Shown here piece after piece: positions 14,284-34,869 of a DNA stretch of 35,827 nucleotides. This DNA is from Verrucomicrobiota bacterium. Lineage in GTDB: Bacteria > Chlamydiota > Chlamydiia > Chlamydiales > JAFEGQ01. A program made the position numbers and the translations under genes. The notes under the pieces were generated by a model that had not been told where the DNA came from, searched no databases, and saw nothing but the letters and a program-made list of their open reading frames with translations. The DNA is taken from NCBI GenBank assembly GCA_018239785.1, contig JAFEGQ010000062.1, positions 1 through 35,827 of the forward strand, read 5' to 3'. Each line of letters starts with the position of its first letter. Positions within the stretch are counted from its first letter, which is position 1.

Positions 14284-15900
14284 ATGGTCGGTGTCACACT
14301 AAAAAAATCTATTTTCGCCCAAGGCAGCTATTCTTTTGAGACAAGTGCTGCCTTTAAAAAATTATCTCAATTGAGCAAGACCCCCTATGATTTGACGCAA
14401 GAAGGGCATCTCACTCCCGAGAGAATCCACCGCTTTGTAGCCCATTCTACCAATTGGAAGCTCCTCTATGGAACCCAAAGAGTGGATGCAGAGGTCATGG
14501 AGACTCTTCAACAATTGGCGCGCGAGGCAAATGTCTTTGAGAAGATGCACGCCATGCAAGGGGGAGAGGTGATCAATTGCATTGAAGGGTTTGAATCGGA
14601 ACAAAGAAGGGTATTACATACAGCTCTTCGAGACTTTTTCGACCATCCCAACGAGGCTAAGGAAGCAAGAGAAGCGGCTAAAGCAGCCAAGCGAGAGTTA
14701 GAAAAGCTAGAGACTCTGATCTACGAGATCGACAAAGAAGAGAGGTGGACAGATCTCCTCTTTGTTGGGATTGGGGGATCTGAACTGGGCCCCAAAATGC
14801 TCGTCCTTGGGCTCGAGGCCTATCAAAGACCCAATCGACGGGTCCACTTCATTTCTAACGTCGATCCTGACGATGTGGCCTCTGTCTTGAAAGGGGTGGA
14901 TCTGGAGCACGCTCTTTTGGTCACGGTTTCAAAATCTGGGGGCACTCTCGAGACCAAAACCAATGAAGACTTTGTGCGCCGTCGCTTTGAGGAAGCTGGC
15001 CTTGATGTCAACGAACACTGCATCGCTGTGACGGGTGAGGGGAGTCCTATGGACGATCCGGCCCGCTATCGGCAATGCCTTTATATCTGGGATTGGGTGG
15101 GAGGGCGCTACTCTGGCACAAGTGTTGTCGGGGGGATCGCGTTGGCATTTGCGTATGGCTTAGATCTCTTTCGGGATCTCTTGCGTGGCGCGCATGCGAT
15201 GGATCTTGCCGCCCGTGAGGAGGATTTTTCGAAAAATATCCCCCTCTTAATGGCTCTTTTGGGAATTTGGAATCGGAATTTTCTCCACTTTCCCACCCTC
15301 GCCATTATCCCCTACTGCAAGATGTTAGGGAGATTGTCTGCCCATGTACAGCAGCTTGACATGGAATCGAATGGCAAACGGATCGATCGCTTTGGCAAAA
15401 GTGTAAGCTATTCTACGTCACCCGTGATCTGGGGTGAGCCAGCGACCAATGCTCAGCATTCTTTCTTCCAAATGATGCATCAAGGAACCGATGTTGTCCC
15501 TTTTGAGTTCATTGGATTTAAGCGCTCTCAAATGGGTCAAGATATGGAGCTCTTTGGCACCACTTGCCATGATAAGTTAGTGGCCAACCTCTTTGCTCAA
15601 GCGCTGGCCTTAGCGCAAGGGCAGACAAGCTCGAATCCCAACAAATTTTTCCCAGGCAACCGCCCTAGCTCCATTTTGCTTGCCGAAGTGCTCGATCCTT
15701 ACACCTTAGGAGCCCTTCTCTCCATTTATGAGCATAAGGTGGCGTTCCAGGGCTTTATCTGGAACATCAATTCCTTTGATCAAGAGGGGGTGCAGCTGGG
15801 CAAAGTTTTGGCGAACAAAGTTCTCAATCGGATCGCCGGAGGCAAAGAGCCCTACTTGCTCGGGGATGCCTTTTTGGATGAGTTACAGCAATGCGATTGA
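14284..15900 (+). CDS. pgi: glucose-6-phosphate isomerase
   Basis: I prefer the ATG at 14284, because the track start at 14134 would overlap the GT2 gene by 119 nt. PGI motifs are GIGGSELGPKM, VSKSGGTLET, DWVGGRYS, QQLDMESNGK and GEPATNAQHSFFQ. Confidence 0.92.
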   Translation: MVGVTLKKSIFAQGSYSFETSAAFKKLSQLSKTPYDLTQEGHLTPERIHRFVAHSTNWKLLYGTQRVDAEVMETLQQLAREANVFEKMHAMQGGEVINCIEGFESEQRRVLHTALRDFFDHPNEAKEAREAAKAAKRELEKLETLIYEIDKEERWTDLLFVGIGGSELGPKMLVLGLEAYQRPNRRVHFISNVDPDDVASVLKGVDLEHALLVTVSKSGGTLETKTNEDFVRRRFEEAGLDVNEHCIAVTGEGSPMDDPARYRQCLYIWDWVGGRYSGTSVVGGIALAFAYGLDLFRDLLRGAHAMDLAAREEDFSKNIPLLMALLGIWNRNFLHFPTLAIIPYCKMLGRLSAHVQQLDMESNGKRIDRFGKSVSYSTSPVIWGEPATNAQHSFFQMMHQGTDVVPFEFIGFKRSQMGQDMELFGTTCHDKLVANLFAQALALAQGQTSSNPNKFFPGNRPSSILLAEVLDPYTLGALLSIYEHKVAFQGFIWNINSFDQEGVQLGKVLANKVLNRIAGGKEPYLLGDAFLDELQQCD

Positions 15901-18431: not shown

Positions 18432-18456
18432 TTGAAAGGAAGGTAAAGTTTTTCTC

Positions 18457-20226
18457 ATGCTCACCTTTCGGCAAAAACTTTTCCTCTCGTACCTGATTGT
18501 CTTTCTCATTTTTTTGGCTCTGTTGTTCCCTTTTGCCGCTCAAGCGGTCCGTCGCGTTGTCAATACGAGTCTGGCGGATCGGACCACACAGGTCATTGAT
18601 AAGATAGAATCAGCTGACACAGTAGAAGCGATGGTCGAGCAGTTGCGTACCTCTGCCCCCAACTTTTTCTTTCGGGTGACCTTATTCGATCCAGGCGGCT
18701 TCATTCTTTACGATTCCCACCTTTCCCCCTCTCCTCAACTCAACGATGTGCGCCGCTATCTCAATGAACATCCGGAGATTGCCCAAGCTCTTGAAAAGGG
18801 GGTGGGGTATCACGAAGGATATTCCCATGCGCTGGGGCAGTCGCTCGTCTATGTAGCCAAGTCGTTCAGCTTCCACGGCAAGACTTTCGTTGTGCGGACC
18901 GCCTACCCTTTAAGTCAAGTGAATGAGCTGACCGAGGAATTTGAGTTTGGCTTTTTTGCTTTGGGATTTACGGTCCTCCTCCTCTTTGGAGTGATGACCT
19001 CCGCCATTGCCCATCAGCTCTCTCGCCCTATTCGGACCATCATTAACGCCATTAAGCCCTATCAAGAGGGAAAACAAGAGTACCTTCCTGAAATTATTCT
19101 CAACAAAGGGGGCTCCCGTCCTCGCGATGAATTTGCACGCCTTGCTGAGACGCTCAACTCGTTAAATCGGAGAATTCAGAGTCAGATCGACACTTTGCGC
19201 AGCGAGCGCAATGAAAAAGAGGCTGTTTTGGAAGCTCTCGTGGAAGGGGTGATTGCAGTCGATTCGGAAATGATCGTCACCTATGCCAATGCGATGGCGT
19301 TGCAGATGATTGGGTGGCGTAAGGAAGACCTTCTGCAGCATGTCTTTACAGTGACACAGCTCGAAGAGTTTCAAGACCTGTTGCAGGGCTGTCAGCAGCA
19401 AGGGGAGATGCTTGCGATTGCTTCGGAGCTGGGGGAAGGGAAATCCAAGATTTACGTCGACGCTATCGCAGCTCCTAAAGCCAATAATACAGGCGCTGTC
19501 TTGGTCTTGCAGGATAAATCGATCCATTATCGGATTCTCGAGATGCGCAAAGATTTTATTGCCAACGCCTCTCATGAGTTGAAGACACCCATCACCATCA
19601 TCAGCGGATTTGCGGAAACGATGCATGAGAATCCCCAGATGCCTACAGAGATGATGCAGGAGGTCACGGCAAAAATCTTAGCGAACTGCCACAGGATGGA
19701 TTCGCTAATTAAGAATCTATTGAGATTAGCCGATATTGAGAACTTGCCGCGCGGCAATTTGCGGACTGTGAATGTCTATGATTTAGTGGATGGATGTCGG
19801 ATGACGACTCTGTCTGTCTATCCAGATGCTCAGATTGAGGTGCTCCAAAAGGGGCATGAGGATATGAAGATTTTGGCCGACCCCGATCTTCTTGAGCTAG
19901 CTGTGAATAATTTAATGCAAAATGGGGCAAAGTACTCGAAAGGGGCTGCGAAGCTCTCTGTGGTCATCGAGCCTGCTCCCAACCACATGGTCAGCATAGC
20001 GGTAACTGATCGGGGCATTGGGATCCCTTCAGAAGACCTCCCTTATATCTTTGACCGTTTTTATACCGTTGATAAGGCCCACTCTCGCCGTTTGGGGGGC
20101 TCTGGCCTCGGGCTATCGATTGTCCGGACGATAGTGGAAAAGCATTTTGGCAAAGTCTCTGTCACCTCAGAGGTGGGCAAAGGTTCCACCTTTGTCATCA
20201 CGTTGCCCCTCAAGCCAGGTATCTAA
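18457..20226 (+). CDS. sensor histidine kinase (TM-HAMP-PAS-HisKA-HATPase)
   Basis: 589 aa with H-box FIANASHELKTPIT, N-box LMQNGAKYS and G-boxes DRGIGI and GGSGLGLSIV. There is no response regulator in the window. Confidence 0.88.
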   Translation: MLTFRQKLFLSYLIVFLIFLALLFPFAAQAVRRVVNTSLADRTTQVIDKIESADTVEAMVEQLRTSAPNFFFRVTLFDPGGFILYDSHLSPSPQLNDVRRYLNEHPEIAQALEKGVGYHEGYSHALGQSLVYVAKSFSFHGKTFVVRTAYPLSQVNELTEEFEFGFFALGFTVLLLFGVMTSAIAHQLSRPIRTIINAIKPYQEGKQEYLPEIILNKGGSRPRDEFARLAETLNSLNRRIQSQIDTLRSERNEKEAVLEALVEGVIAVDSEMIVTYANAMALQMIGWRKEDLLQHVFTVTQLEEFQDLLQGCQQQGEMLAIASELGEGKSKIYVDAIAAPKANNTGAVLVLQDKSIHYRILEMRKDFIANASHELKTPITIISGFAETMHENPQMPTEMMQEVTAKILANCHRMDSLIKNLLRLADIENLPRGNLRTVNVYDLVDGCRMTTLSVYPDAQIEVLQKGHEDMKILADPDLLELAVNNLMQNGAKYSKGAAKLSVVIEPAPNHMVSIAVTDRGIGIPSEDLPYIFDRFYTVDKAHSRRLGGSGLGLSIVRTIVEKHFGKVSVTSEVGKGSTFVITLPLKPGI

Positions 20227-21140: not shown

Positions 21141-21614
21141 ATGAGATATGTCCTCCTCTTAATTGTCATGTTTCCCCTCTTTGGCGAGGTGGCGCTTCCC
21201 TACAGTGCGCCGCCGCCTTCCGCCACCTATGAGGCAGCGCAGCGCTACATTCGCTTTAAAGACCGCGCCGAAGCTTACCGCGCAGAGGGGAACGATAAGA
21301 TGGCCGATCTTTACGACAGGCGAGCTCGTCAAGCGGAAAAGCAATTGAATGGTGCAGAAGGGGGCGAGCATCGGGGGTTTGCCTCTAGGATTCAAGAGGA
21401 GCGCGCTTGGCGCGAAAAAGAGCTCTCCTATCAGCGGCGCCGTGCCAGGGAACCTGGGACGATGACAGCGCGTGAGTCGCAGATCGAGCAGATGACTGGA
21501 GGGAGCTGGCAGACGCTTCCCCATCAAGGGACCTCTTCGGCAAAAAAACGGCAGTATCTATGGCCTTATAAGCAAGGGATCTTTCCTCCCAACGACTACT
21601 CCAACGGCCGCTAA
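21141..21614 (+). CDS. hypothetical secreted, charged protein
   Basis: 157 aa with an N-terminal hydrophobic leader followed by R/E/A-rich helical sequence. I recognise no homology. The antisense ORF 21159..21527 is treated as its shadow. Confidence 0.4.
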   Translation: MRYVLLLIVMFPLFGEVALPYSAPPPSATYEAAQRYIRFKDRAEAYRAEGNDKMADLYDRRARQAEKQLNGAEGGEHRGFASRIQEERAWREKELSYQRRRAREPGTMTARESQIEQMTGGSWQTLPHQGTSSAKKRQYLWPYKQGIFPPNDYSNGR

Positions 21615-22609
21615 TTTTGTGTGCGCTCGAGGTAAAACGCCCACTGTATAGAGTTCTCCTTATTGTCCCACTGACATTTCCCGGTTAGCTGGTAAGCTTT
21701 ATGCAATTGATTATTGAATTTCGTCCAATTTAAAGCGCTGACATCTTCGAAGATCTTAGCAGGCGTATTAATTGAGTCAAGGGTGTGTTTGATGACATAA
21801 GAAGCATTTTCAAATATGCTCCATTTTAAATCTTTCATTACGGCATCTGTTTTTTGTCCTGAAGCGAAATTCATAAAGATCCGATCAGGTTTTAAGGTAT
21901 TCACAATTATAGTCACCGCTTCTTCATTAAAATTATCTATACTTCCATGTAATTTTAATTTTGTAATTTTAATATTATGAGTAGTCAATAGATTTAAATC
22001 TAATGAGTTGGGATCTTTGAGCTTGACAGTGTCAAAATGGCATGCGTTATTTTTGCTGTTTTTTGCAGTAGAGTCTAGGAGCGCCTTCTTTATATTTTCA
22101 CTGAGATCTTCCGGGCTTATATGGTGAATCGACCAATTCTTGGGCAACAACTTGATTGCGTTCAGGAGCTCTTGATCTTTCTCTTCGTAGTCACTCACCT
22201 CGATCACGAAGGGGTCAGGAGGGCAATTTCCCCAATTGATTTCCTCAATTTGAGAGTCACCTGGAAGCATTTTAATGATATCCAAAAAGCAATCTTTTCT
22301 GTTCGTAGAGGGATCTAGAGCAGAAAGATCGAGAGTTTTGTCATTTTTATGCGCTTCAAGCCATTGGTGGAGTTCTTCTTGAGAGGAGAACTTTATTTTT
22401 TGTGTAGAGGGGATGAGAGTGCTAGCTAGAGCGGCAAAGGCGCAAGCGCTGCCGCCAAGGAGGGTAACTTTTTTATCAATTTTTTTCGCGAAATAGGCTG
22501 TTGCAAAGGCTCCAACTCCTAGAAGACAAAAAAGGGAGAATGGTTTTTTAGGCGAGATGTCAACCGCTGTTGAGTGTTGCTGCGAAGGGGAGATATTCTG
22601 GTTTTCCAT
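21611..22609 (-). CDS. hypothetical membrane protein with Inc-like bilobed hydrophobic domain
   Basis: 332 aa from a visibly AT-rich gene. Two closely spaced hydrophobic lobes (FSLFCLLGVGAFATAYFA-KKIDKK-VTLLGGSACAFAALASTLIP) lie near the N-terminus, followed by a ~260-aa soluble domain. Confidence 0.5.
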   Translation of the reverse strand: MENQNISPSQQHSTAVDISPKKPFSLFCLLGVGAFATAYFAKKIDKKVTLLGGSACAFAALASTLIPSTQKIKFSSQEELHQWLEAHKNDKTLDLSALDPSTNRKDCFLDIIKMLPGDSQIEEINWGNCPPDPFVIEVSDYEEKDQELLNAIKLLPKNWSIHHISPEDLSENIKKALLDSTAKNSKNNACHFDTVKLKDPNSLDLNLLTTHNIKITKLKLHGSIDNFNEEAVTIIVNTLKPDRIFMNFASGQKTDAVMKDLKWSIFENASYVIKHTLDSINTPAKIFEDVSALNWTKFNNQLHKAYQLTGKCQWDNKENSIQWAFYLERTQN

Positions 22610-22781: not shown

Positions 22782-23957
22782 ATGAATCCCATCAAGAATC
22801 CTTTTTCACCCGGAGCCGGCTCCCCTCCGCCTGAATTAGTGGGACGCGATTTCATCCTGGAACAAGCGCGCATTCTTTTAGGTAGGACCAAAAAGAAGCG
22901 TTCTGAAAAAAGTTTGTTGCTTACAGGACTTCGAGGAGTGGGGAAAACGGTCCTCCTCAATGAAATTGAAGGTCTGGCGAAGGACGAGGGATACAAGACC
23001 ATCTTCATTGAAGCTCATGAGAACAAAGCGCTTGGCCTTTTAATTGCTCCCTATCTTCGCAATCTTCTCTTTGACTTAGATCGACTTGCTGGAGTGAGCC
23101 ATAAGGTAAAGCGAGGACTTACGACCCTCCGAAGCTTCATGAGTGGACTTCATCTCACTGTGGGGGAGATGACGATCGGATTTCGAGCAGATTCTGAGCA
23201 AGGACTTGCCGACAGCGGGGATTTAGAGATCGATCTGCCCAGCCTTTTCATTGCCATTGGAGAAGCTGCTGAGGATCGAAAGTGTGCGGTAGCGATCTTC
23301 ATCGATGAAATGCAATATTTTAGCCAAAAAGAATTTGGAGCTCTCATCATGGCCATGCATAAGGTGCAACAACTTAAGCTGCCTCTCGTGCTGTTGGGAG
23401 CGGGGCTCCCCATCCTCCCTTGGCTTGCAGGAGAATCCAAGTCCTATGCTGAGCGGCTTTTTCATTTTCCAGATGTTGGAGCCTTATCGGAAGAAGAGGC
23501 AGCTATTGCCTTGAATGAACCAGCCCTTGCTGAAGGGGCGACGTTTGATCCTGCGGCTCTTCGCGAAATCTTTCGCCTGACAAAAGGATATCCCTATTTC
23601 CTTCAGGAGTGGGGATATCAAGCATGGAACGTAGCAAAGGCAAGCCCGATCACTTTAAAAACGGTTCAAGAGGCGACAGAGGCAGTGATTTATCAGCTCG
23701 ACAGGAATTTTTTCCGCGTCCGTTTTGATCGCCTCACTCCAGGGGAGAAGAACTTTTTACGTGGGATGGCAGCTCTGGGGCCTGGCCCTTACCGGATGGG
23801 AGAGATAGTAGACTTGTTGAAGGTCAAACCGACGAGTTTAAGTCCAATGCGCTCTAGGCTGATCCAGAAAGGGATGATTTATAGTCCAGCGTATGGAGAT
23901 TTGGCATTTACAGTTCCCCTATTTGATGAATTTATGATGAGGGCAATGCCCCAATGA
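22782..23957 (+). CDS. AAA/STAND-like ATP-binding protein with C-terminal winged-helix domain
   Basis: 391 aa with N-terminal NPFSPGAGSPPPELVGRD, Walker A GLRGVGKT, Walker B AIFIDEMQY, and a C-terminal wHTH-like LTPGEKNFLRGMAALGP...MGEIVDLL. It resembles the Arch_ATPase/AAA_16 type. Confidence 0.65.
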   Translation: MNPIKNPFSPGAGSPPPELVGRDFILEQARILLGRTKKKRSEKSLLLTGLRGVGKTVLLNEIEGLAKDEGYKTIFIEAHENKALGLLIAPYLRNLLFDLDRLAGVSHKVKRGLTTLRSFMSGLHLTVGEMTIGFRADSEQGLADSGDLEIDLPSLFIAIGEAAEDRKCAVAIFIDEMQYFSQKEFGALIMAMHKVQQLKLPLVLLGAGLPILPWLAGESKSYAERLFHFPDVGALSEEEAAIALNEPALAEGATFDPAALREIFRLTKGYPYFLQEWGYQAWNVAKASPITLKTVQEATEAVIYQLDRNFFRVRFDRLTPGEKNFLRGMAALGPGPYRMGEIVDLLKVKPTSLSPMRSRLIQKGMIYSPAYGDLAFTVPLFDEFMMRAMPQ

Positions 23958-23971
23958 TCTAGAAATTGACG

Positions 23972-24000
23972 TTGACATCTCTTTGTTGAAATCCTAAATT
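23972..24000 (+). promoter_or_regulatory. sigma70-like promoter candidate for the Rhs gene
   Basis: TTGACA (23972-23977), a 17-nt spacer, then TAAATT (23995-24000). The Rhs ATG is at 24008, 8 nt after the -10 element, and no SD sequence is visible. Confidence 0.4.
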
Positions 24001-24007
24001 ACTTGGG

Positions 24008-27000
24008 ATGAAATCCTTTCTTATTGCCTGTTTTCTCTTTATCTCTCTTTCGGCTAATCCAGAAACTTGTCCTATCTCTCCGATGACTGTGGCCATTGAG
24101 CCGATCGGGCTTATCCATGGGTGTGTCGATGTGGTTTCTGGAGCTTACATTGCTTCCACTGCAGAGGTAACTGTGAACTGTCACGAGCCGATTACCCTTT
24201 ACCGGCATCTCATCTCCTGCAGAGAGTCTAAGGATTCCTATTCCTTTTGGCAGATCGGGAAAGAGTATATCGATTTTAGCGCTCCAGCTCATGCTCGAGG
24301 AGAAACGAGCGGCTTTTTTCGTCTGATTGGGGAGAAAGGGGAAGTGGAGAATTTTATTTTGCTTCCTAACCAAAAAGGGTGGGGATTTCAAAATCGAGAT
24401 AAGCCTTTTGCTCTTAGATGTCAGTCTTTCTCCAGTAATACCTCCTACGGAGAGATGAGCGGTCGGACGCATCCCGGTAATTACATGCTCAACTATGGCC
24501 CCCCTCCTGTGATTAAAAAAGAAGTTGCAGCAGGCAATGTAAGTTTCAGCCGATTGGATCCTTCGAACTGGAGAGACGGCCGCTTTTGTCCACTGCCTTC
24601 AGCACCCATCGCTCAGTGTCGTTTCTTCTCTGATTACGGATCTTACTCCTTCACTCTTCAAACCGGCAGTGGAGAAGTGCGCATCTACACCCATGGGAGG
24701 CAGCCTTGGAGCGACTACAAGCATTGGAAAGACGGGGAGAATCGGGAGCCAAAACAGGAGACCTTCTTGCTCCGAGAGGTGCGTCGCCCTAATGGGAATC
24801 GGGTCTTTTACTTTTACGATGAGAAGGATCGGCTCATAGAGATCTGCTCTGTGAATCGCGCTCTCGACCAGACGTTTGGATGGATTCGGATTTCCCATTA
24901 TTCAGGGGGAGCAACGATCACGACAAGCGATGGGCAGGCCATCACCTATCGCACAAAAAAGATCAGCAGCAATTCGAAGAGCAAATATGTCCTTAGCGAA
25001 GTGCACGGGATGGGAGGGACTCGAGAGGACATTGGGTATCATGTGGCAAAACGAGCAAAAAATCCTTTTGCTATTACATCTCATTGCTTTGAGGGGAGTG
25101 GTTTGTGCGCCGAATATTACCCCGAAACAGAGGCTTGGAATGCTTGCCTGTTGAGCGGTAGGGTCAAGAAATTGGACGTTCACTTGAGGGGTCGCGGAGT
25201 TCGGAATCTTTATTCCTTTGCATATCAAGAAAATGGCCCTGGTTATTTTAATCAGACTTTTGTGACAGATGCTGAAGGAGGGGAAGTCGTTTACATGAAG
25301 GACTTGCGGCGCCTAATAAGGGTCACAAAACTCAACAAACAGCAACCCTTTTTTGTTCTCAATCAGGCATGGGGCGTGAACAATTTGTTGATCGCTCGCT
25401 CGATTGAAGGAAAAAGTTGTGTGGGTTCTCCTTTTGAGCCTTATGTTTCTCACCGTTTCAAGTATGATGACAGAAGAAATGTCACCGAAGAAGCGTTAAG
25501 CGGGCATCTCACTGGCAGAGGGCAGTGGGAGGGGTACCCCACCAACTACACCTACTCAGAAGATGGGTTTAACCTCCCCCTCTCTCAAACGACCGACTCT
25601 CAACGGATCATCAATAGCTATCGCCCTGGGACAGATCTCCTCATCAAGCGGCAAATCTATGAAGGAGATCAGCTCAAAGAGGAGATTTTCCTCGACTATG
25701 ACGATAACGCTGGCGTCATTTTAAAGACCCATCACATCGGCAGTGTCACCTTCCTTGAAGAGACAAAGCGTCGAGCAGATGGTATGCCCCTCGCAGTCAC
25801 CCAAAAGACCCCATCAAGTCAGCTCCACCGCACAATTTTCCATTATAACGAGCGCAATCAAGTCATCCAAACAGACCATTTCGACGCCCATGACGCCTAC
25901 CTTTACAGCCTTTTCACCGAGTTTGATGAACGCTCGCGCGTCATCTCCCAAACAGATCCTCTAGGGCGTAAGACCTATTTTACATTTGACCCTAGAAATA
26001 ACCCTCTCACGACCTACATAGAAGGGATTCCTACAGAGATCTGCTGTGAATATGATCCGATGAATTCTCTCGCCAAAAAGGTTCTGCGCGACCTTGTCAC
26101 TGGGGCAGAGCAAATTGAGCGCTATGAGCGGGACAAAATGGGGCGAGAAACCGCTCGGATCACCCCTTTGGGCGCAAAAATTACCTATCTGAGAGATGCT
26201 CACGGCCGCATCTTAGAAGAACAACAAGTCCCCCTTCGCACTCCTGAAGGGTGGAAAGCTCCCCTCATCATCCGAGAATATGACCCTCTCGACCGGGTCA
26301 TTAAAGAGATCGACCCTCAAGGAGGAGTCACCGAAGTTGACTATACGGCGCGCAACGAGTGGTGCCTCAAAAAACACCCCGATGGCACGCTTGAGAAGCG
26401 CTACTTCACCCTTGAAGGCCAGCTTGAAGAGGAGATTCACAAGGATGGCAGCTCAACGCGCTATACCAGAGATTACAAAGGGCGCATCCTCTCCTCTCAA
26501 CGATGTGACGGCGCAGGCCAAGTGCTCATCGAAGAGACCTTTATTTACGACGGAGATCTCCTCCTCCAACACACCGACCCCCGCGGCTTTACAGCGCACT
26601 ACTCCTACAATGAAGCAGGTCAGCTCCTCCAAATGCGCAAGGAAGATCAGCTCACCGAATATACTTACGATGCACAGGGGCGCAAAATCACAGAACTCTC
26701 TTGGTCGGATCCTCAGCACTACCTCCTCAAGCGCTTAGAATACGACCTTCTCGATTGGATCACTGCTGAGCAGCTGGAAGACGAAACTGGCAAGGTCTAT
26801 CAGCGCAATGAAACGATCTACGATTTAGCTGGCAATGTCATCAAGACATCTACTCTTCTCTCCTCCACAACCACCGACTACGATTCCTTTAGCAGACCTA
26901 TCCGGCAAGAGGATGCCCTTGGACAAGTCACCACGATCTCCTACGCAGAAGTGCCCTTTGAGGGGCAAACGGTTCGTTTGACCACCACTACAGATCCAGT

Positions 27001-29341
27001 GAGCCGGCAAACCCTCACCTACAAAGACGAGCAAGGGCATCTCTTGCACGAAGAGCAAAGAGATGCCCAAAATCATCTCCTCTCCCAAGTCGATTATTTT
27101 TACGATCTCAATGGCAACGAGGTCAAACAGGAGCACCAAGTCCTCTCTGAAGGCCAAATACTCCGCACTTACGCCTTTAGCAACACCTATGGCCCAGGCA
27201 ATTTACTCATTCAATCCACAGAAGGGCTGACGAGTGAATTACCCCGCATCACTCGCTATTTCTACGACTCTGCAAGCCGCCTCAACTGCACCATCAAGCC
27301 AGACGGAGCCCATCTCTACAGAACCTATGATGTCTTAGGCCGCCTTGCCTCTCATGAAGGACCCGATTTTTCGTACACTTACACCTATGACGCAGCCGAT
27401 AACCTCATCGCCGTCAACGACGTTTCTAGATCCTACGATTCCCACAACCGCCTTCTTTCTGAAACAACTCCCTCAGGCACTATTAGCTGCCAAAGAGATC
27501 GTTTAGGTAGACGCACCCACCTCTCCTACCTTGGCCAAGAGGTCAGCTACACCTATCGAGGGCCTTATCTCGCCACTGTTTCCTCTTCCCGCTTGACCCA
27601 CCGCTATCTCGAATATGACCTCGAAGGAAGACCCACCTTGGAGCAATTGCCAGGCAATTGCGGGTCGAGAAGGCGAGAATACGACCCTCTTGGCCGCCTC
27701 ACCCATCTCGACACCGACTATTTTGTCCAAGATCTCGCTTACGACGCCGCCTCAAACCTCACCGACCTCAAAACTCGCTCCTGCTATTTCAGCCGCTCCT
27801 CGATGAACTACGCCTGGGAAGAGAAAGAGGAGAAGTTTGTTTTCGACCCCCTCGACCAGCTCCTCTCAGAGCCTGATGCCACTTATGCGCACGACTCCAT
27901 CGGCAATCGCCTTGTCCACAATGACGATAGCTACAGTTACAACGGGCTCAACGAGCGTCTAGAAGATCCTTACGACCTCTGTGGCAGGCTTTTGCAAGTC
28001 GGCTCACATACCTGTTCCTTTGACAGCCTTGACAGACTCATTCATCTCGACGACAGTTATTTCAGTTACGATGCCTTCCACCGCCGAGAAGATTTGCTTT
28101 ATGACGAGCAGATGGAGTTAGGAGACGCCAAAAACTTCCGCATCCTCGGAAGGGCCCCCTCTCGAGATATCGGAGCGATGGTCCTCGCCATGCTCGATGG
28201 CCTCACCTTTATTCCCATCATGGACCACTTGGGTTCCGTAGTGGCTCTTGTTCTCCCCGATGGTCGCCTTTGTGAAAGGCGCCTCTACTCTGCCTTTGGG
28301 ATCCCTTCAGAGGAGAGCTTTTACCAAAATCCTTGGGGCTTTTGCTCGAAGCGAGCAGAAGGGGAGCTTCTCTTCTTTGGCCGCAGATACTATCACCCCC
28401 CTTCTGGAAGATGGATCAGCCCCGATCCAGCAGGACATGCCGATGGGCCTAATCTCTACGCCTATTGCCACAATAACCCCCTCGGAGAGATCGATCCCAC
28501 GGGTTTATATTCCCTAGTTGACAGAGAGCGCTACTACAGGTCGCAGCCAAATTATTACTTCGATCGCAAACCGGATATCAAAGCTGCACCAAAGTCTGGA
28601 TGGTTAAAGTCCACCTACCAGACCGCAAAAACTCACTTTTTCAGCACTCTTGCTAATCCTCGTGTGCAAGGGGGACTGCAAGCTTGCGTAGGGCTTTCCG
28701 AAATGTTTGCAGGCGGCGCAACGACTTTTGGGAGTTATGGGGTGGCAGCTCCATTAGGATGGCTGGCCGTAGGGCATGGGGCTGATCAATTCACGACAGG
28801 GATGAGGCGCATCTTCAATAACCGCCATCAATTCACTGCTACTGAACATCTGCTCCATAAAACGGGCATGTCTTCAGGCGCAGCAGCTTTTACTAACGGT
28901 ATGCTAAGCTTTACGACGCCTACGGCTGCTCTGAGCATTGCTCGTAGCGCGAGGTATGGCGAACAGACCGTTACGAGACTTTTGTCTCATAGGAGTTCGG
29001 CAGTAGCAGAAGCTGAGGGATGGGTGCTTCCTGCAAATGGAGGAGGCTCTTGGATTAATGGCCGATGGTACACTGAGCATGCATTGGAGCGTATGGCGCC
29101 CAGAACACCAGAAGTGATGGCTAAATTGGAAGTGCGCAGCTTAGCAAGAGCACGTGCTCAAGGTATTTTACCCAGGACAGAAGCATATGGGGACTGGTTG
29201 GCAAAAGGCAACGGCCCTGCTCCTCGAGGGATACCGCCATTAGTTGTTGAAGCTGAAATCGCTCATCCTAGTTCCACTAGTGTGCGTGTATTTTTAAGTC
29301 AAAAAGGGGATGTGATCACCGTTATTCCTGGAGGGCAATGA
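24008..29341 (+). CDS. Rhs/YD-repeat polymorphic toxin with Sec signal peptide and variable C-terminal toxin domain
   Basis: 1777 aa. It has a signal peptide (MKSFLIACFLFISLSANPETC) and a DUF6531-like N-terminal motif (GCVDVVSGAYIASTAEVTV..EPITLYRHL). Dozens of YD repeats follow (YDPLDRVIKEIDPQGGVTEVDY, YTYDAQGRKITE, FDERSRVISQTDPLGRKTYFTFD). The Rhs core ends in GRRYYHPPSGRWISPDPAGHADGPNLYAYCHNNPLGEIDPTGL, with DPTGL at residues 1496-1500 (nt 28493-28507). A 277-aa tail comes after it. Confidence 0.92.
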   Translation: MKSFLIACFLFISLSANPETCPISPMTVAIEPIGLIHGCVDVVSGAYIASTAEVTVNCHEPITLYRHLISCRESKDSYSFWQIGKEYIDFSAPAHARGETSGFFRLIGEKGEVENFILLPNQKGWGFQNRDKPFALRCQSFSSNTSYGEMSGRTHPGNYMLNYGPPPVIKKEVAAGNVSFSRLDPSNWRDGRFCPLPSAPIAQCRFFSDYGSYSFTLQTGSGEVRIYTHGRQPWSDYKHWKDGENREPKQETFLLREVRRPNGNRVFYFYDEKDRLIEICSVNRALDQTFGWIRISHYSGGATITTSDGQAITYRTKKISSNSKSKYVLSEVHGMGGTREDIGYHVAKRAKNPFAITSHCFEGSGLCAEYYPETEAWNACLLSGRVKKLDVHLRGRGVRNLYSFAYQENGPGYFNQTFVTDAEGGEVVYMKDLRRLIRVTKLNKQQPFFVLNQAWGVNNLLIARSIEGKSCVGSPFEPYVSHRFKYDDRRNVTEEALSGHLTGRGQWEGYPTNYTYSEDGFNLPLSQTTDSQRIINSYRPGTDLLIKRQIYEGDQLKEEIFLDYDDNAGVILKTHHIGSVTFLEETKRRADGMPLAVTQKTPSSQLHRTIFHYNERNQVIQTDHFDAHDAYLYSLFTEFDERSRVISQTDPLGRKTYFTFDPRNNPLTTYIEGIPTEICCEYDPMNSLAKKVLRDLVTGAEQIERYERDKMGRETARITPLGAKITYLRDAHGRILEEQQVPLRTPEGWKAPLIIREYDPLDRVIKEIDPQGGVTEVDYTARNEWCLKKHPDGTLEKRYFTLEGQLEEEIHKDGSSTRYTRDYKGRILSSQRCDGAGQVLIEETFIYDGDLLLQHTDPRGFTAHYSYNEAGQLLQMRKEDQLTEYTYDAQGRKITELSWSDPQHYLLKRLEYDLLDWITAEQLEDETGKVYQRNETIYDLAGNVIKTSTLLSSTTTDYDSFSRPIRQEDALGQVTTISYAEVPFEGQTVRLTTTTDPVSRQTLTYKDEQGHLLHEEQRDAQNHLLSQVDYFYDLNGNEVKQEHQVLSEGQILRTYAFSNTYGPGNLLIQSTEGLTSELPRITRYFYDSASRLNCTIKPDGAHLYRTYDVLGRLASHEGPDFSYTYTYDAADNLIAVNDVSRSYDSHNRLLSETTPSGTISCQRDRLGRRTHLSYLGQEVSYTYRGPYLATVSSSRLTHRYLEYDLEGRPTLEQLPGNCGSRRREYDPLGRLTHLDTDYFVQDLAYDAASNLTDLKTRSCYFSRSSMNYAWEEKEEKFVFDPLDQLLSEPDATYAHDSIGNRLVHNDDSYSYNGLNERLEDPYDLCGRLLQVGSHTCSFDSLDRLIHLDDSYFSYDAFHRREDLLYDEQMELGDAKNFRILGRAPSRDIGAMVLAMLDGLTFIPIMDHLGSVVALVLPDGRLCERRLYSAFGIPSEESFYQNPWGFCSKRAEGELLFFGRRYYHPPSGRWISPDPAGHADGPNLYAYCHNNPLGEIDPTGLYSLVDRERYYRSQPNYYFDRKPDIKAAPKSGWLKSTYQTAKTHFFSTLANPRVQGGLQACVGLSEMFAGGATTFGSYGVAAPLGWLAVGHGADQFTTGMRRIFNNRHQFTATEHLLHKTGMSSGAAAFTNGMLSFTTPTAALSIARSARYGEQTVTRLLSHRSSAVAEAEGWVLPANGGGSWINGRWYTEHALERMAPRTPEVMAKLEVRSLARARAQGILPRTEAYGDWLAKGNGPAPRGIPPLVVEAEIAHPSSTSVRVFLSQKGDVITVIPGGQ

Positions 29342-29661
29342 AGGTAGATATTATGGAAATGACTTCATTTTTTGATGAATTAGATCCTTATAATGATGAT
29401 GAAAAAAAAGTTTATGGATTTAGATCTTTTCGCAGTGATTATTTAACTATAAAACTTGGAATTTCTGTTTATGAATCTAAAGTTGCTATTAGCATTTATA
29501 AAGATCTTAAAATATCACTTGCAAGTTTTTATCTTAACGGATGCTTAGAAATAAATGTTTTAGATGAGGCGTGCAAATGCTTAGAAATTATCCACGAAAT
29601 TAAAAATGAAAGATGCATCCTCTCTCTTTATGGGAGTCCAATTCTACAGTATCAAGATTAG
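29338..29661 (+). CDS. candidate cognate immunity protein (paralog 1)
   Basis: 107 aa. The ATGA start/stop overlaps the Rhs gene. It is strongly AT-rich and is a paralog of the 30672..30998 product. Confidence 0.6.
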   Translation: MKVDIMEMTSFFDELDPYNDDEKKVYGFRSFRSDYLTIKLGISVYESKVAISIYKDLKISLASFYLNGCLEINVLDEACKCLEIIHEIKNERCILSLYGSPILQYQD

Positions 29662-29676
29662 GTAATCTTATTAAAA

Positions 29677-30672
29677 ATGAAAAAAATAGTATATTTCGAT
29701 CCTTCTGCTAAAAAAATGAAAAGCAGAATCTATGGCACTACAGCAATCATTTTATTTTTAGCGATGTTGCTGATAGATGTTGCAAATGCTCGAGGTGACA
29801 CTCGCCATCAGGCGGGGGCGTTATTAATAGAAAACATCTATTTACTTGTGCCCTGGTGCTTGGCTTATTTGCTCGTTGCGCGCTATAGAATTTTTCTGAA
29901 AAAGTTTATCCCAATTTATCTATGCTTAGCACTTTTAGTAGCCGCTGCTTCGCAATTTGTTCAGAATGAAAACATACGCATAAATCAAAAAAAGAGATTT
30001 AACGCTGAAGCTGTAAAGATAATGCAGTATTCACTTAATGGACAAATGGCTGATCCAACCGTTCAATTGCCTACGAGTTATTCATCTGAACAATATGGAA
30101 AGGAAGCTAAAGCTTTAAATCATTTGAAGGAAATGGCCGAGCTTTCTCAACAAGAATGGATATTCGTTGCTCAAACTTTTAATGCAATGCATTTAGATCA
30201 GATTTTTTCCGAGAATTTCATTTTCAACTTGTCGGAGATCATTAAGAAAAAGAGAGAGGTTCAAGGATTTCTTAAATTTCTCGATGAAAGTGAAAAAAGG
30301 ATGAGGAAGATCCACTTCCATTGGATTCGAAAAACCCTGTCCTCTATGAGAGTTGAAAATCCTCTAACAACTGATGTAGAGGCAATTTATTCTAAGAGTG
30401 TTCAAGAGCATGGGATTTCTTTTGAAAAAACATTGAATATGTGGAGAAGATTTGCCCAAGAGCATCTGGGTCTTCTCAATGCCCTAGCGGATGCTTATGG
30501 AAGTTATGAAATAGATGAAAATAATGATTTGGTTTTTCTTGATTTTGAAGACGAGCTCAATTGTAACTTGCATCTAAAATATATAAGAAAAATTAGGCAG
30601 GAATCTCAAGATTCTGAGCTGTTAGCCCAACAGTACATCTCAAGTCTACAACAAAATGGCACCGGAGGCTAA
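29677..30672 (+). CDS. hypothetical 3-TM membrane protein with helical C-terminal domain
   Basis: 331 aa from an AT-rich gene. It has three N-terminal hydrophobic helices (AIILFLAMLLIDVANA, IYLLVPWCLAYLLVA, IPIYLCLALLVAAASQFV) followed by a ~220-aa charged, helical region. I recognise no family. Confidence 0.5.
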   Translation: MKKIVYFDPSAKKMKSRIYGTTAIILFLAMLLIDVANARGDTRHQAGALLIENIYLLVPWCLAYLLVARYRIFLKKFIPIYLCLALLVAAASQFVQNENIRINQKKRFNAEAVKIMQYSLNGQMADPTVQLPTSYSSEQYGKEAKALNHLKEMAELSQQEWIFVAQTFNAMHLDQIFSENFIFNLSEIIKKKREVQGFLKFLDESEKRMRKIHFHWIRKTLSSMRVENPLTTDVEAIYSKSVQEHGISFEKTLNMWRRFAQEHLGLLNALADAYGSYEIDENNDLVFLDFEDELNCNLHLKYIRKIRQESQDSELLAQQYISSLQQNGTGG

Positions 30673-30998
30673 TGAACGTTGATATTACGGCGCTTCTCAT
30701 TGTTTTTGATGAGCTGTTGTCATCGACCACTGAGGAGCAAGGAATCTACGCGTTTAGAACACGCAGAGAAGATGGAATTGCTGTTATTTTATCCTTTTCT
30801 ATTCACGAAGGTTCCGTGGATGTTGTTGTTCAAAACAACTCAGGGATCGACATTTCTGTGTTTAAATTAAAAGATTGCTCTGAGATTAATGTCTTAGATG
30901 AAGAGCGCAAGTGCTTGGAAATTTTGCGCAGAGATGGAAAAGGGCGGTGTTTTATCTCGTTAATCGGAGATAGCATCGTGAACTATACAAAAGAGTGA
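30672..30998 (+). CDS. candidate immunity protein (paralog 2)
   Basis: 108 aa. The TAATG start/stop overlaps the 331-aa ORF. A gapless alignment to paralog 1 gives about 41 identical positions out of 107 by my hand count (M.VDI...FDEL...Y.FR...C.EINVLDE..KCLEI...RC..SL.G..I..Y). Confidence 0.6.
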   Translation: MNVDITALLIVFDELLSSTTEEQGIYAFRTRREDGIAVILSFSIHEGSVDVVVQNNSGIDISVFKLKDCSEINVLDEERKCLEILRRDGKGRCFISLIGDSIVNYTKE

Positions 30999-31100: not shown

Positions 31101-33045
31101 TCAGACTATAATTTTTTTAGCTTTTGAGATCTGTGGTGAGATCCCAATAGCCTTGTAAATCTCCTTTTGAGACTCTTCGGCTTGCGTTGTACTGCGGTGA
31201 TAAAGGACTTGCCCCTGCTCTAATTTGGCGCACATTGTGATGCGCATGCGGCGCCAGAGGCGATTGCGGAGGGTAGGCCAGTGGTGGAAGAGGTTGCCGC
31301 GGTGACACTGGTACAGGCATGCTTGGATGAGTTGGTAGGCCAAAAGGGTGATCCAAAGGTGTCCGTCAAGGCGTTCTTTTTTCTCATGAAAGATGGGGCG
31401 CAATCCCAAGGAGGACTTCATAAAGCGGAAGGCATCTTCGACTTTCGCAAGGGAGCGATAGATTTCCCAGAGCTTTTGCAGAGGTTCGTTGAGGAGGTTC
31501 GTACGGAGAAAGTAGGAGCCGTTAAGTTTGGCTTCGAGTTTTTCTGGGAGGGGTTGCCATTCGATGGCTGTGGCGATTTGCCCATCTGTTGAGTGGACAT
31601 GGACCTCATAACATCCTGAAATGCGTTTGTGCTTTTCCTTTAACCTTCCGACTCTTTCTAAGATTTTTCCGAGCTTCTTGCGGCAATTGGGGCGAGTGAG
31701 TCCTTCTGCTAATTTTTGTAGATCGGCTTCGAATCTGGTGCAAAAGAGGGTTTTTATCTGCCCGGCAACGGCCTCCTTGTCGGGAGATTCGCAGTAAAGC
31801 CACCTCTCCTCGGAGTCTGTGGTTTTGACCAGAGCTCCTTTGACGTGAGAGTCCCCGAGGAGGACCGGAGGGGCTTCGAGTTCTTCGGAGGGGGGATCTT
31901 GCCTGGCAACAACGATGTAATGGAAATGGTTATCCCTCAACCACGTGAGGTTCTCCTCTGTTGCAATGCCGGCGTCCATGACAATGGTGGGTTTGAAAAG
32001 ATTGCCAGGGACGTTGAGGGCTGCTATCGCCTCTTGCAGGGTTTTTGGCTCAGAGATGTTGCCTGGCAAAAATGAAGAGTGTTGTGTAAATCCGTGCTCA
32101 TTCACGACAAGGCGCAGAGTGATGAGGGGGCAGTCTGAGCGCTTTTCTTTGGACCCGCCCCTTTTTGCATTGGGATTAGCAGTGGCTCGCCCTTCCATAT
32201 AGGTATTAACCTGAGTTTTGGGTTGTCTTCCTCGCAGTCAGAGGGATTTCGCGTCGAAAATCTCACAATTTTTCCCGAAGCCCCTGAATGTGAGGGAGAA
32301 AAACCCAAAACTCAGGTTATTAGATAGGTCATAGAGAATGAGGGTGCTTCGATAGCCGTGGAGGGTCTGCTGGGCCTCTACGAAATGCTTTTCGAGCTCT
32401 TCTTTGTGCTTCAACAGTTTGTCGCTGATCGCGTAGAGATGGTCTAGAGTGGTATTGGCAAAATCGAAGTTAAGCAACTCTCCTAAAGCGCTGGTCTGGA
32501 GAAGCCAATCATAAGTCGCTCGTTCGCTAGATGGGAAGATGGCCCTTCCCAAGATGGACCCTAGGCTCAGGGCGATTTCCTTCTCAGAGAAGCCGAGTCC
32601 TTTGAGAGTTTTTGGCAATTGGAGCTCAGAGGCGAAGTGCAAGAGGAGGTGCTCAGCGCCGACTGTTCTGGGCTCTTGGGTCTCGACGCTTTGTAGGTCA
32701 ATGGTTGCGTAGTCAGGCTCTTGGGGGACTTCTTTTTCCCCAACGCGGTTGAGCAGTCGATGGGTCAGCTCCTGAGTGTATCTGTGAGCTAGGCGCTCTA
32801 TTTCTTCAGGACAAGGGAAAAGAGAAAGAGTTCCGTTAAAGATCTCTTCGATTCTGTTGGCAAGGAGCTTGAGCTCTTCTTTTTTTAGGTCGAGGTCTGC
32901 ATCCAGAGAGAGGAGAATCCTCTGCCTTGCTTCTTTTCTGTGAGCACCGGTTCGACGAGCTGGTAAGAGAAGTAGTCTTTTTGCGTTTTCCGCTCTGTTT
33001 TTCTAGTTTTTCTAATGAATATGGGTCCAATGATAGAGGGTTGGC
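31101..33045 (-). pseudogene. IS1634-family (IS4-like) DDE transposase gene, decayed
   Basis: The C-terminal part 31101..32198 carries (TY)MEGRATANPNAKRGGSKEKRSDCPL, IVMDAGIATEENL and RPIFHEKKERLDGHLWITLLAYQL. The middle part 32238..~33000 carries ...VGAEHLL...STLILYDLSN and is separated from the C-terminal part by the 111-bp insertion. The N-terminal ~60 codons are spread over three frames (LEKLEKQSGKRKK / DYFSYQLVEPVLTEKKQGR / QRILLSLDADLDLKKEE), which implies at least two frameshifts. Element ends were not identified. Confidence 0.75.
32208..32318. mobile_element. 111-bp MITE-like insertion inside the IS1634-family transposase gene
   Basis: It has perfect 17-bp terminal inverted repeats, AACCTGAGTTTTGGGTT (32208-32224) and AACCCAAAACTCAGGTT (32302-32318), with further imperfect pairing to ~29 bp. 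It is flanked by direct ATT copies at 32205-32207 and 32319-32321. Removing the element plus one ATT (114 nt) fuses ...LILYDLSN to TYMEGRATANP... in frame, which restores the conserved LYDxxNTYxEG region. Confidence 0.8.
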
Positions 33046-33627: not shown

Positions 33628-34869
33628 CGCGGGGATTTGGGGGGGCAGCGCCCCCCAATTCTATCTCTTTCAAAAATCCGATTTTTTCTATTTTTCATTA
33701 TATAATTCCTCGGGCGTTACATAACCCAAACTCTGATGAGGTCTTTTTCCATTATAAAAATTGAAATATGCTGTTAATCCGGCATTTACCTCAGGAAGAT
33801 GCTCATAGGCTTTGGGATAGATGTCCTCGTATTTCACACTTCTCCACAGTCTTTCCACCATGATGTTATCAAAAGCTCTCCCTCTCCCATCCATGCTGAT
33901 AGAGATTCCGCCCTCTGCTAACCTTCCTGTAAAGCGAGAGCTGGTAAATTGGACGCCCTGGTCAGTATTGAAAATTTCAGGACTCCCGCAAGAAAGCGCC
34001 CTTTCTAATGCTTCAAGGCAGAAGTCTGTATCAAGAAGATTTGACAATTGCCATGCAAGCACATAGCGACTGTACCAATCCATGATGGCAAACAAATACC
34101 CAAATCCATGGATCACAGGAATATAGGTAATATCCCCAGCCCACACTTGATTCGGGCGACATATCGTCATTCCGCGCAAGAGGTAAGGATATTTTTTGTG
34201 ATCGCGATGACCAATGCTCAATCTTGGTTTGGGATAAATAGCCTCCAACCCCATGAATCGGATTGCTGACCTCACTATGGTCTCTCCTACATCAAACCCT
34301 TGCCTTCTCATCTCCACCGCCATCCGCCTTCTTCCATAGAAAGGGGTCTCCATGTACTGCTTGTCAATAGCAGTCATTAAACGATAGGTCTCCTCGGAGG
34401 GCTGTCTCGGCTCGTAATAAAGCCCCGAACGGCTGACTTTAAGGAGGGAGCATTGCTCCCTCTCTGACAAGATGGGATCCTCCTTGTCAATGAGGAGGCG
34501 TCGTTCATTCAGGCTAAGGTACCGAATTTTTTTTTAAGCCACTCATTTTCCATCTTCAGGCGTCCAATTTGCTCGAATAATTCAGCCTTTTCCTTGGCGT
34601 CTGTAGCGTCCTTTGCTCGCTTTGATTTGCGAAAAACTTCTGGACAAAATTCAAGAAATTGCTTTTTCCACCCCGAGAGAATCATCGGATGAACCTGTAG
34701 GTCTCCTGCAAGTTGAGCAGCTGTCTTTTCCCCTTTAAGCACCTCTAGGACGGCTTTCACCTTGAATTCCGGGGTGTGATGCTTTCTTGGTCCTCCCATT
34801 TTACCCTCCACATGTTGGGAGGTTATAAGCTTAGGGGGTGGTCCGAATTTGCCATACCACTATAGTGCA
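33615..34869 (-). mobile_element. IS3-family insertion sequence (boundaries approximate)
   Basis: This span encloses orfA and orfB. One candidate pair of termini (TGAGCATTCG... at 33615 and ...TATAGTGCA at 34869) gives TG...CA ends and about 1.26 kb. However, the terminal inverted repeats pair poorly and I see no 3-bp target duplication, so the ends are unresolved. Confidence 0.45.
33688..34811 (-). CDS. IS3-family transposase OrfAB (orfA 34509..34811; orfB reached by -1 frameshift)
   Basis: OrfA is HTH-like (HTPEFKVKAVLEVLKGEKTAAQLAGDLQVHPMILSGWKKQF) and ends ...WLKKKFGTLA. An A9 run lies at 34527-34535 on the minus strand. The -1 frame continues IRYLSLNERRLLIDKEDPILSEREQCSLLKVSRSGLYYEP into OrfB, whose DDE triad is WAGDITYIP, FNTDQGVQFTS and MVERLWRSVKYE. 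Confidence 0.9.

Follow-up and report, generated by a model that had tools for sequence, protein, structure and literature searches.

Toxins of the Sec-dependent RHS class have been catalogued, with chlamydiae listed among the lineages concerned (Zhang et al. 2012, PMC3482391), and the same study describes polyimmunity loci and orphan immunity genes (section 39). We analyzed a stretch of 35,827 nucleotides (nt), hereafter the window, from a Verrucomicrobiota bacterium placed by GTDB in the Chlamydiales (GenBank assembly GCA_018239785.1, contig JAFEGQ010000062.1, positions 1 to 35,827, forward strand). Four adjacent plus-strand genes were distinguished: a Rhs/YD-repeat polymorphic toxin gene (24008-29341; 1777 amino acids, aa), its predicted cognate immunity gene I1 (29338-29661; 107 aa), gene X encoding a protein with three transmembrane (TM) segments (29677-30672; 331 aa), and I2, a putative orphan immunity paralogue (30672-30998; 108 aa). 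Together they probably constitute a Rhs polymorphic toxin locus of the Planctomycetes-Verrucomicrobia-Chlamydiae group, in which an unnamed pair of toxin tip and I1 is accompanied by two array residents, X and I2. The initial annotation of this DNA had treated the toxin-I1-X-I2 arrangement as a new type of system. Every sequence feature that it listed is present, and its coordinates for all four open reading frames (ORFs) are exact, but the interpretation as a new four-gene system was not upheld.

The Rhs stop codon and the I1 start codon share a 4-nt ATGA overlap (29338-29341), I1 and X are separated by 15 nt, and X and I2 overlap by 1 nt within the sequence TAATG (30670-30674). The overlaps behind both translational couplings proposed earlier can be read directly in the DNA. 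A GGAGG sequence is located inside the Rhs gene, 6 nt before the ATG of I1, and another inside the 3′ end of X, 4 nt before the ATG of I2. The GC content is 0.50 for the Rhs gene, 0.28 for I1, 0.36 for X and 0.40 for I2, i.e. each of the array genes has a value of its own.

Profile searches of the Rhs protein revealed RHS repeats in six stretches (Pfam PF05593, E = 1.5e-35), YD repeats (NCBIfam TIGR01643, YD_repeat_2x, E = 9.6e-24) and the Rhs-associated core at residues 1427-1500 (28286-28507, plus strand; TIGR03696, Rhs_assc_core, E = 1.5e-19; score 70.2 bits, cut-off 32.5). The core contains the DPAG...DPTGL self-cleavage motif, the two halves of which are at residue 1473 and residues 1496-1500, respectively, and it is followed by a tail of 277 aa, as had been described. 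Between residues ~200 and 1500 the protein shares 26-30% identity with other signal-bearing Rhs proteins (L007, L087 and L092). Its N-terminus, MK followed by SFLIACFLFISLSA, has one lysine and then a hydrophobic core of 12-13 residues, too short for a 19-residue membrane helix. The first 17 residues (MKSFLIACFLFISLSAN; 24008-24058, plus strand) look like a Sec signal when read from the sequence, and the N-termini of the related Rhs proteins L092 and L097 are alike. No PAAR, prePAAR or VgrG-binding Pfam match was detected in residues 1-431 or in the whole protein. Among the ORFs of at least 100 aa scanned with Pfam across the 35.8-kb window there was no type VI secretion system (T6SS) family, nor a family of any other secretion system, in agreement with the earlier statement that no secretion genes lie nearby. 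The RHS and core profiles and the negative T6SS scan thus support the description of a Rhs polymorphic toxin locus with a signal-like N-terminus and without T6SS markers.

The C-terminal tail is composed of two parts. A search with the complete 277-aa tail yielded 120 protein clusters, ~110 of which match only tail residues ~172-277 (Rhs residues 1672-1777), nearly always at the C-terminus of the carrier protein itself. This part corresponds to a toxin module of 106 aa with an isoelectric point (pI) of 9.8 (29021-29338, plus strand), characterized by the motif GG..INGRWYTEHALERMAP ... PRGIPPxVVEAEI ... V.TVIPGG. Across 190 modules, the polar residues R1686, Y1688, H1691, E1694, R1695, R1710, R1740 and E1748 are near-invariant. 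The module was modelled with AlphaFold from a 64-sequence alignment (predicted local distance difference test, pLDDT, 90.6) as a β-hairpin followed by four helices and a second β-hairpin. Foldseek searches with this model gave no match in the PDB (best E = 0.87, TM-score < 0.2) or in BFVD.

The remaining part of the tail, a glycine-rich and partly hydrophobic pre-toxin region of 171 aa (Rhs residues 1501-1671; 28508-29020, plus strand), was reached by only ~10 homologues in the same search, and no Pfam family, PT-TG (PF14449) included, has a match in these residues at E ≤ 10. One related Rhs tail (L096:1-1591) carries the window pre-toxin region, at 37% identity over Rhs residues 1400-1649, joined to an unrelated toxin tip, and for this reason we regard the region as a separable module. 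It presumably serves delivery or membrane translocation. The gene downstream of the unrelated tip encodes a protein of 105 aa, and the same type of 105-aa gene occurs again in L097.

No named toxin family was found for the tail, its two halves or the homologues from Firmicutes, whether among the Pfam Tox- and Ntox-type families or in NCBIfam and PHROGs, and a PDB sequence profile search with the module returned 0 hits at E ≤ 10. This agrees with the earlier observation that the tail belongs to no named family. None of the motifs listed in the tables of Zhang et al. 2012 (PMC3482391) resembles RxYxxHxxER...PR...E, and our literature search found no paper on the module, a full-text search for ‘HALERMAP’ being likewise empty. 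In RefSeq, copies from Bacillus are labelled ‘S-layer homology domain-containing protein’ or ‘hypothetical protein’, and there is no NCBIfam model.

Several candidate assignments of the module were considered and rejected. The string ‘HALERM...RGI’ prompted a comparison with DUF4258/BrnT-like ribonucleases (RNases), which gave no Pfam match at E ≤ 10 and no Foldseek match; more generally, no profile match and no shared fold with BECR/RelE/DUF4258-type RNases was found (the best PDB match being the one given above). The spacing R1686-x4-H1691 is reminiscent of the Rx4-6H motif of HEPN domains, but it is located at the N-terminal hairpin, whereas in HEPN domains it would be expected in the final helix of a four-helix bundle, and the folds do not match. 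An ADP-ribosyltransferase, to which ‘EAE’ (similar to ExE) might point, is contradicted by the small size of the domain, the position of the motif in a helix and the lack of a match to that fold. Foldseek rows for MazG-like NTP pyrophosphatases represent noise (E > 2, TM-score ~0.15), and no such relationship is claimed. Crystal structures exist for toxins PT1 and PT7 of Nachmias et al.; if these are in the PDB, neither matches by profile or fold. The phyletic ranges of the other PT1-PT9 toxins do not fit, and one supplement file of that study contained no matching sequence; identity with one of PT2-6, 8 and 9 appears improbable.

The module is shared by very different carriers. In a scan of one genome per species, relatives were encoded in at least 110 genomes, comprising chlamydia-like metagenome-assembled genomes (MAGs), which contain the closest ones, as well as actinomycetes, Firmicutes, Paraburkholderia, Microcoleus, Planctomycetes, Verrucomicrobia, Acidobacteria and one Pasteurellaceae genome. 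The carriers include other Rhs proteins, those of actinomycetes among them, LXG proteins of Bacillus and Listeria (LXG E = 1.6e-68), PT-TG proteins (P0116, 25 bits; L061, 38.6 bits), proteins with S-layer homology (SLH) domains encoded on plasmids of the Bacillus cereus group, two proteins of chlamydia-like bacteria (a tetratricopeptide repeat protein and one of 1793 aa that is not a Rhs protein), and a DUF4280/PAAR-like protein (sub-threshold match). LXG, SLH and PT-TG proteins of Listeria monocytogenes and the B. cereus group bear the same module as the window Rhs protein. A variable C-terminal toxin common to unrelated carriers is a feature of the Rhs/YD toxins, and it was observed here.

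Some of these loci have a structure of their own. In Candidatus Neptunichlamydia sp. REUL1 (L003:4623-11977, OY735137.1) the 1793-aa protein ends in the module and is followed by an overlapping gene of the immunity family described below. Past an insertion sequence (IS) fragment, an orphan 311-aa ORF repeats ~170 pre-toxin residues of the 1793-aa protein with a different tip and its own 97-aa gene, a classic case of an orphan tail/immunity array, found here in the genome of a chlamydia. Locus L090 contains a stand-alone toxin module of 104 aa together with an immunity gene of the same family. Carriers of ~293 aa, composed of an N-terminal domain, PT-TG and the module, were found in Polyangiaceae, Pyrinomonadaceae and Paraburkholderia podalyriae (L022, L023 and L026). 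As regards the taxonomy of the window itself, its Rhs protein clusters with an 88-aa protein that bears the label Verrucomicrobia, and the nearest relatives of both its toxin and its immunity proteins are chlamydia-like.

The toxin gene and its predicted immunity gene are tightly linked at the window locus. I1 is acidic (pI 4.7) and has no signal sequence, no TM segment and no hydrophobic segment at all; I2 has the same pI, no signal sequence and only a marginal hydrophobic segment. A profile search with the two proteins recovered 18 further proteins, several of them on the same contigs as toxin homologues. A hidden Markov model (HMM) of this I family identified in a first pass 44 ORFs directly downstream of the module and, after one iteration, an I gene in this position in 65 of the 82 loci where a downstream ORF could be called; the latter count includes the genes of ~105 aa that follow LXG toxins of Firmicutes. 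In ~16 loci the stop and start codons overlap by 4 nt, as they do in the window. Identities of the toxins and of the immunity proteins co-vary (16 pairs, r = 0.38, p = 2e-5). Because its adjacency to the module is conserved in this way, I1 was assigned as the predicted cognate immunity gene, and we infer that its product blocks the toxin by direct binding. The module and the I gene form a widespread two-gene cassette that is not peculiar to this locus.

The I family has no match in Pfam, NCBIfam, PHROGs or the PDB, and I1 and I2 themselves have no Pfam match at E ≤ 1. Thus neither the tail nor the small proteins belong to well-characterised families; the families which they form are real but uncharacterised. 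In 7 further loci, from actinomycetes or related bacteria, the gene directly downstream of the module encodes WapI (PF24716). A relationship between the I family and WapI was considered and rejected (hhalign probability 0.1 against the WapI-like neighbours). The low GC content of I1 was also not accepted as proof of recent import: in the other I-family loci checked, the I genes lie 5-15 GC points below their own module, compared with 22 points in the window (28% versus 50%), so that the drop is largely a trait of the family.

The two small proteins of the window are paralogues, as initially proposed (38-39% identity; BLASTP 39%, E = 1e-25), and the DNA similarity of the two cassettes begins ~8 nt before the ATG. 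I2 shares a higher identity, 50-60%, with the immunity genes of L090, L002, L005 and L006. Since it is closer to these foreign genes than to I1, it is a different allele and not a recent tandem copy. A toxin remnant upstream of I2 was sought by tblastn and blastn and none was found. Two tandem I genes are also present in L001. I2 thus reads as an orphan immunity allele.

X has hydrophobic segments at residues ~21-41, 47-68 and 76-96, consistent with the three-TM protein annotated previously, and it contains no remnant of a Rhs tail, as had also been noted. Pfam, NCBIfam, PHROG and PDB searches gave no match, and its model (pLDDT 84.5) has none in the PDB. The suggestion of a ClyA-family pore former was discarded, as all rows for α-pore-forming toxins had E > 1 and TM-scores of ~0.2, values generic for long helical bundles. 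A word-based search detected no homologue of X, but an exhaustive HMMER scan revealed 30 representatives of an X family sharing 23-32% identity. Its members have a helical module of ~190 aa, which is duplicated in those of 460-520 aa, preceded by one to three hydrophobic helices. The short-anchor members possess only a signal-like N-terminus, and because these forms look like signal peptides the helical module is probably extracytoplasmic.

The genetic context of X was informative in eight cases, and in seven of them the gene lies within ~2 kb of a Rhs gene or inside runs of immunity-type genes, including Cys_rich_CPCC; two more contigs were too short to judge. Given as gene order, with numbers for the lengths in aa of intervening products, the contexts are Rhs-I1-X-I2 in the window, Rhs-195-70-74-176-X in a JGI contig, Rhs-87-157-CPCC-87-X in L092/93 and Rhs-105-197-94-X in L096. 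In L087-89, X is divergent from a Rhs gene with a Tox-REase-9 tail, in L090 the order is Rhs, CPCC immunity gene, X, three genes, orphan toxin module and I gene, and in L097 X is placed beside a Rhs N-terminal fragment and immunity-type genes. The exception is L086, where X adjoins recJ/secDF and no Rhs gene was seen in 6 kb. (In L090:1330-6243 the plus strand encodes a 1637-aa Rhs protein, and the stored calls of small valine- and glycine-rich minus-strand ORFs are wrong.) No X-family gene adjoins any of the other ~80 toxin-module loci, and no I-family gene follows X among the homologues examined. On account of this absence and of the contexts listed, X is considered to reside in Rhs/immunity arrays rather than to be this toxin's partner. 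The leading explanation of X, with a chance that falls a little short of even, is that of an immunity protein against some toxin acting in the periplasm.

These data are compatible with the following model. The Rhs protein would be exported via its N-terminal signal. Shell enclosure and self-cleavage are known from Rhs and Tc proteins, and here the YD-repeat shell would enclose the 277-aa tail, while the DPxG...DPTGL aspartyl-protease motif would cleave after residue 1500. The glycine-rich pre-toxin region may then assist in delivery or membrane crossing, and the basic 106-aa module would act in the cytoplasm of the target cell, with His1691, Glu1694, Glu1748, Arg1686, Arg1695 and Arg1740 as candidate catalytic residues. 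A cytoplasmic target is predicted because I1 and I2 are acidic and devoid of signal sequences, and I1 also lacks TM segments. The module is predicted to be a cytoplasm-acting enzyme, and the best guess, with evenly balanced chances, is a nuclease, RNase activity being likelier than DNase activity; this proposal is based on the small basic domain, its His/Glu/Arg set, an immunity protein that is acidic and cytoplasmic, and the fact that nucleases are the usual cargo of such carriers. Translationally coupled I1 would bind and block the toxin, I2 would be an orphan allele against variant toxin modules of competitors, and X would be a membrane-anchored, periplasm-facing array protein that does not form a second toxin/immunity pair with I2.

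Several points weigh against this interpretation. A Sec-exported Rhs protein would still have to cross the outer membrane and reach a target cell, and the putative signal peptide itself is recognized by inspection only. No sequence or fold link of the module to any nuclease was obtained with Pfam, NCBIfam, PHROGs, the PDB profile search or Foldseek. At residue 1755 (nt 29270-29272) the window module has serine where 97% of the 190 modules have glycine (PGST to PSST; the change is also present in at least one homologue, P0004). The stand-alone PT-TG carriers of ~293 aa from Paraburkholderia, Acidobacteria and Polyangiaceae have neither an I nor a WapI gene beside them, and such immunity-less carriers would not be expected of a toxin whose target is universal in bacteria. 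X occurs with Rhs proteins whose tails differ as far as they were seen, namely the window module, Tox-REase-9 in L087 and other tips in L090, L092 and L096, and a specific immunity protein would not obviously be expected with so varied a set.

The variety of tails beside X could be explained if X were an accessory factor of Sec-dependent Rhs proteins with any tip, i.e. an inner-membrane-anchored periplasmic helical protein that handles, stabilizes or exports the shell. This role would also suit the fact that so old a family keeps its Rhs neighbourhood and that its helical module is predicted in the compartment which the Rhs protein must traverse. We nevertheless consider it unlikely, as X is absent from further Rhs loci for which flanks of several kb are available (L007 and L011), its position varies from divergent upstream to as many as five genes downstream among immunity-type genes, the L086 member has no Rhs gene in the 6 kb seen, and immunity proteins often show duplicated modules and anchors that vary.

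A different target can also be envisaged. The closest module relatives come from chlamydia-like MAGs, the 1793-aa non-Rhs carrier of Neptunichlamydia has an effector-like size, and stand-alone carriers without immunity genes exist, all of which would be in keeping with a module aimed at a eukaryotic host (an amoeba or other protist), the I proteins providing mainly self-protection or acting as chaperones before export. This is a rather improbable alternative, since free-living Firmicutes carry the module on LXG/type VII secretion system (T7SS), PT-TG and SLH proteins, and actinomycetes on Rhs proteins, with tightly linked immunity genes, a hallmark of interbacterial toxins, and orphan alleles such as I2 would fit only where related bacteria attack one another with variant toxins. 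Finally, it is very improbable that toxin, I1, X and I2 form one new four-part system, or that X and I2 are a second pair in which X is toxic and I2 neutralizes it: the coupling of X to I2 by TAATG, the GGAGG within the 3′ end of X that parallels the one within Rhs for I1, and the lack of a known family for X speak in its favour, but I genes elsewhere follow the module and not X, no X homologue examined precedes an I gene, X is missing from the ~80 other module loci, and I2, which resembles I1 in being acidic, is likewise predicted to be cytoplasmic, in contrast to the conserved part of X, for which an extracytoplasmic position is predicted.

We therefore return to the interpretation as a Rhs toxin locus with an attached immunity array. 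A locus of this type is textbook material, and the window adds no new principle. Its value lies first in the toxin/immunity pair, widespread and unnamed in Pfam, NCBIfam and RefSeq, with a confident model and no solved relative, which makes it a well-defined target for study. The locus also provides a clean example of module swapping, in which one pre-toxin region is found with different tips and one tip on many carriers. The X family follows the Rhs loci of chlamydia-like bacteria and may bear on Sec-exported Rhs proteins in outer-membrane bacteria without a T6SS. A bolder proposal, which we put forward as doubtful, is that the module has a new enzymatic fold with an activity unseen among polymorphic toxins and ranks among the most widely shared unnamed warheads (of chlamydia-like bacteria, Firmicutes, actinomycetes, cyanobacteria, Burkholderia and Planctomycetes, with at least five delivery routes), and that the X family is a new periplasm-facing class tied functionally to Sec-exported Rhs proteins of Gram-negative bacteria. 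If this is true, the X class could give an indication of the way in which bacteria lacking a T6SS handle Rhs proteins of this kind.

The DNA surrounding the locus contains a number of other features. A sequence resembling a σ70 promoter (23972-24000, plus strand; TTGACA-17-TAAATT, 10 of 12 matches) is placed just upstream of the Rhs start, but it constitutes weak evidence: it is a consensus match only, and the region has 3 sites of this type against a mean of 9.2 in shuffled sequences, i.e. fewer than expected. Downstream, the locus is bounded by an IS4-like DDE transposase gene (31101-32198, minus strand; DDE_Tnp_1, E = 1.7e-12). A possible split N-terminal ORF of this element is located at 32238-32642 (minus strand), in which case the remnant spans 31101-32642. 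An IS3-like element remnant with an HTH_Tnp_1 and rve integrase pair lies further downstream (33688-34811, minus strand). No second toxin module or Rhs-tail remnant was found elsewhere in the window.

On the other side, a gene for an AAA_16 ATPase (22782-23957) separates the Rhs gene from a 332-aa ORF two genes upstream (21611-22609, minus strand; GC content 0.40), which has an N-terminal hydrophobic segment and no Pfam family. An antisense ORF of 157 aa (23999-24472, minus strand), overlapping the Rhs gene at its 5′ end, has nothing to support it and is probably spurious. The run of genes at 15891-20226 (plus strand) may be a signalling module; it encodes an adenylate/guanylate cyclase with a HAMP domain (846 aa) and, directly after it, a PAS histidine kinase (589 aa) and a DUF2608 protein. 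The scanned ORFs in the rest of the window have housekeeping and signalling functions and comprise recA, mutL, pgi and genes encoding a pyrophosphatase, a Kdo hydroxylase, the HAMP-cyclase and the histidine kinase.

Comparison with known systems places the locus among several described types. It differs from T6SS-delivered Rhs toxins in that its Rhs protein has no PAAR/VgrG-type N-terminus and no T6SS genes are present among the window ORFs scanned. With small RNase toxins, such as the BECR tRNases (e.g. YxiD-CT, PMC12700104) and those of the barnase type, the module shares a length of ~100 residues, a basic character, His/Glu/Arg residues and a small acidic immunity protein; there is no sequence or fold match, and the likeness is one of functional analogy. 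LXG toxins of the secretion system of type VIIb (T7SSb) of Firmicutes and the PT-TG/SLH toxins of the B. cereus group have a wholly different delivery domain, but they carry the module at 38-45% identity with an I gene directly downstream. Those pairs are likewise unnamed, and uncharacterised in the literature found.

The array of the window resembles polyimmunity loci in that I1, X and I2 are arranged in tandem, on the same strand and close together, with no toxin gene between them, and in that I2 is a distant paralogue of I1. It differs from such loci in having only three genes, attached to a full toxin gene, and in the putative status of X as an immunity protein. The nearest described class is that of the Sec-exported Rhs toxins (‘T2SS/Sec-dependent’, where T2SS is the type II secretion system), which includes WapA of Bacillus subtilis. 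Compared with WapA/WapI, I1 and I2 are not of the WapI family, although WapI does accompany the module copies of actinomycetes. Unlike the class in general, the window has a tip and an immunity protein that belong to no family of PMC3482391 or Pfam, and its host is Gram-negative, as indicated by the Kdo hydroxylase gene, and so has an outer membrane to cross. With this class the locus shares a signal-like N-terminus, a YD shell, a DPxGL core, a variable tip and a tightly linked small immunity gene, which is followed by further immunity-type genes.

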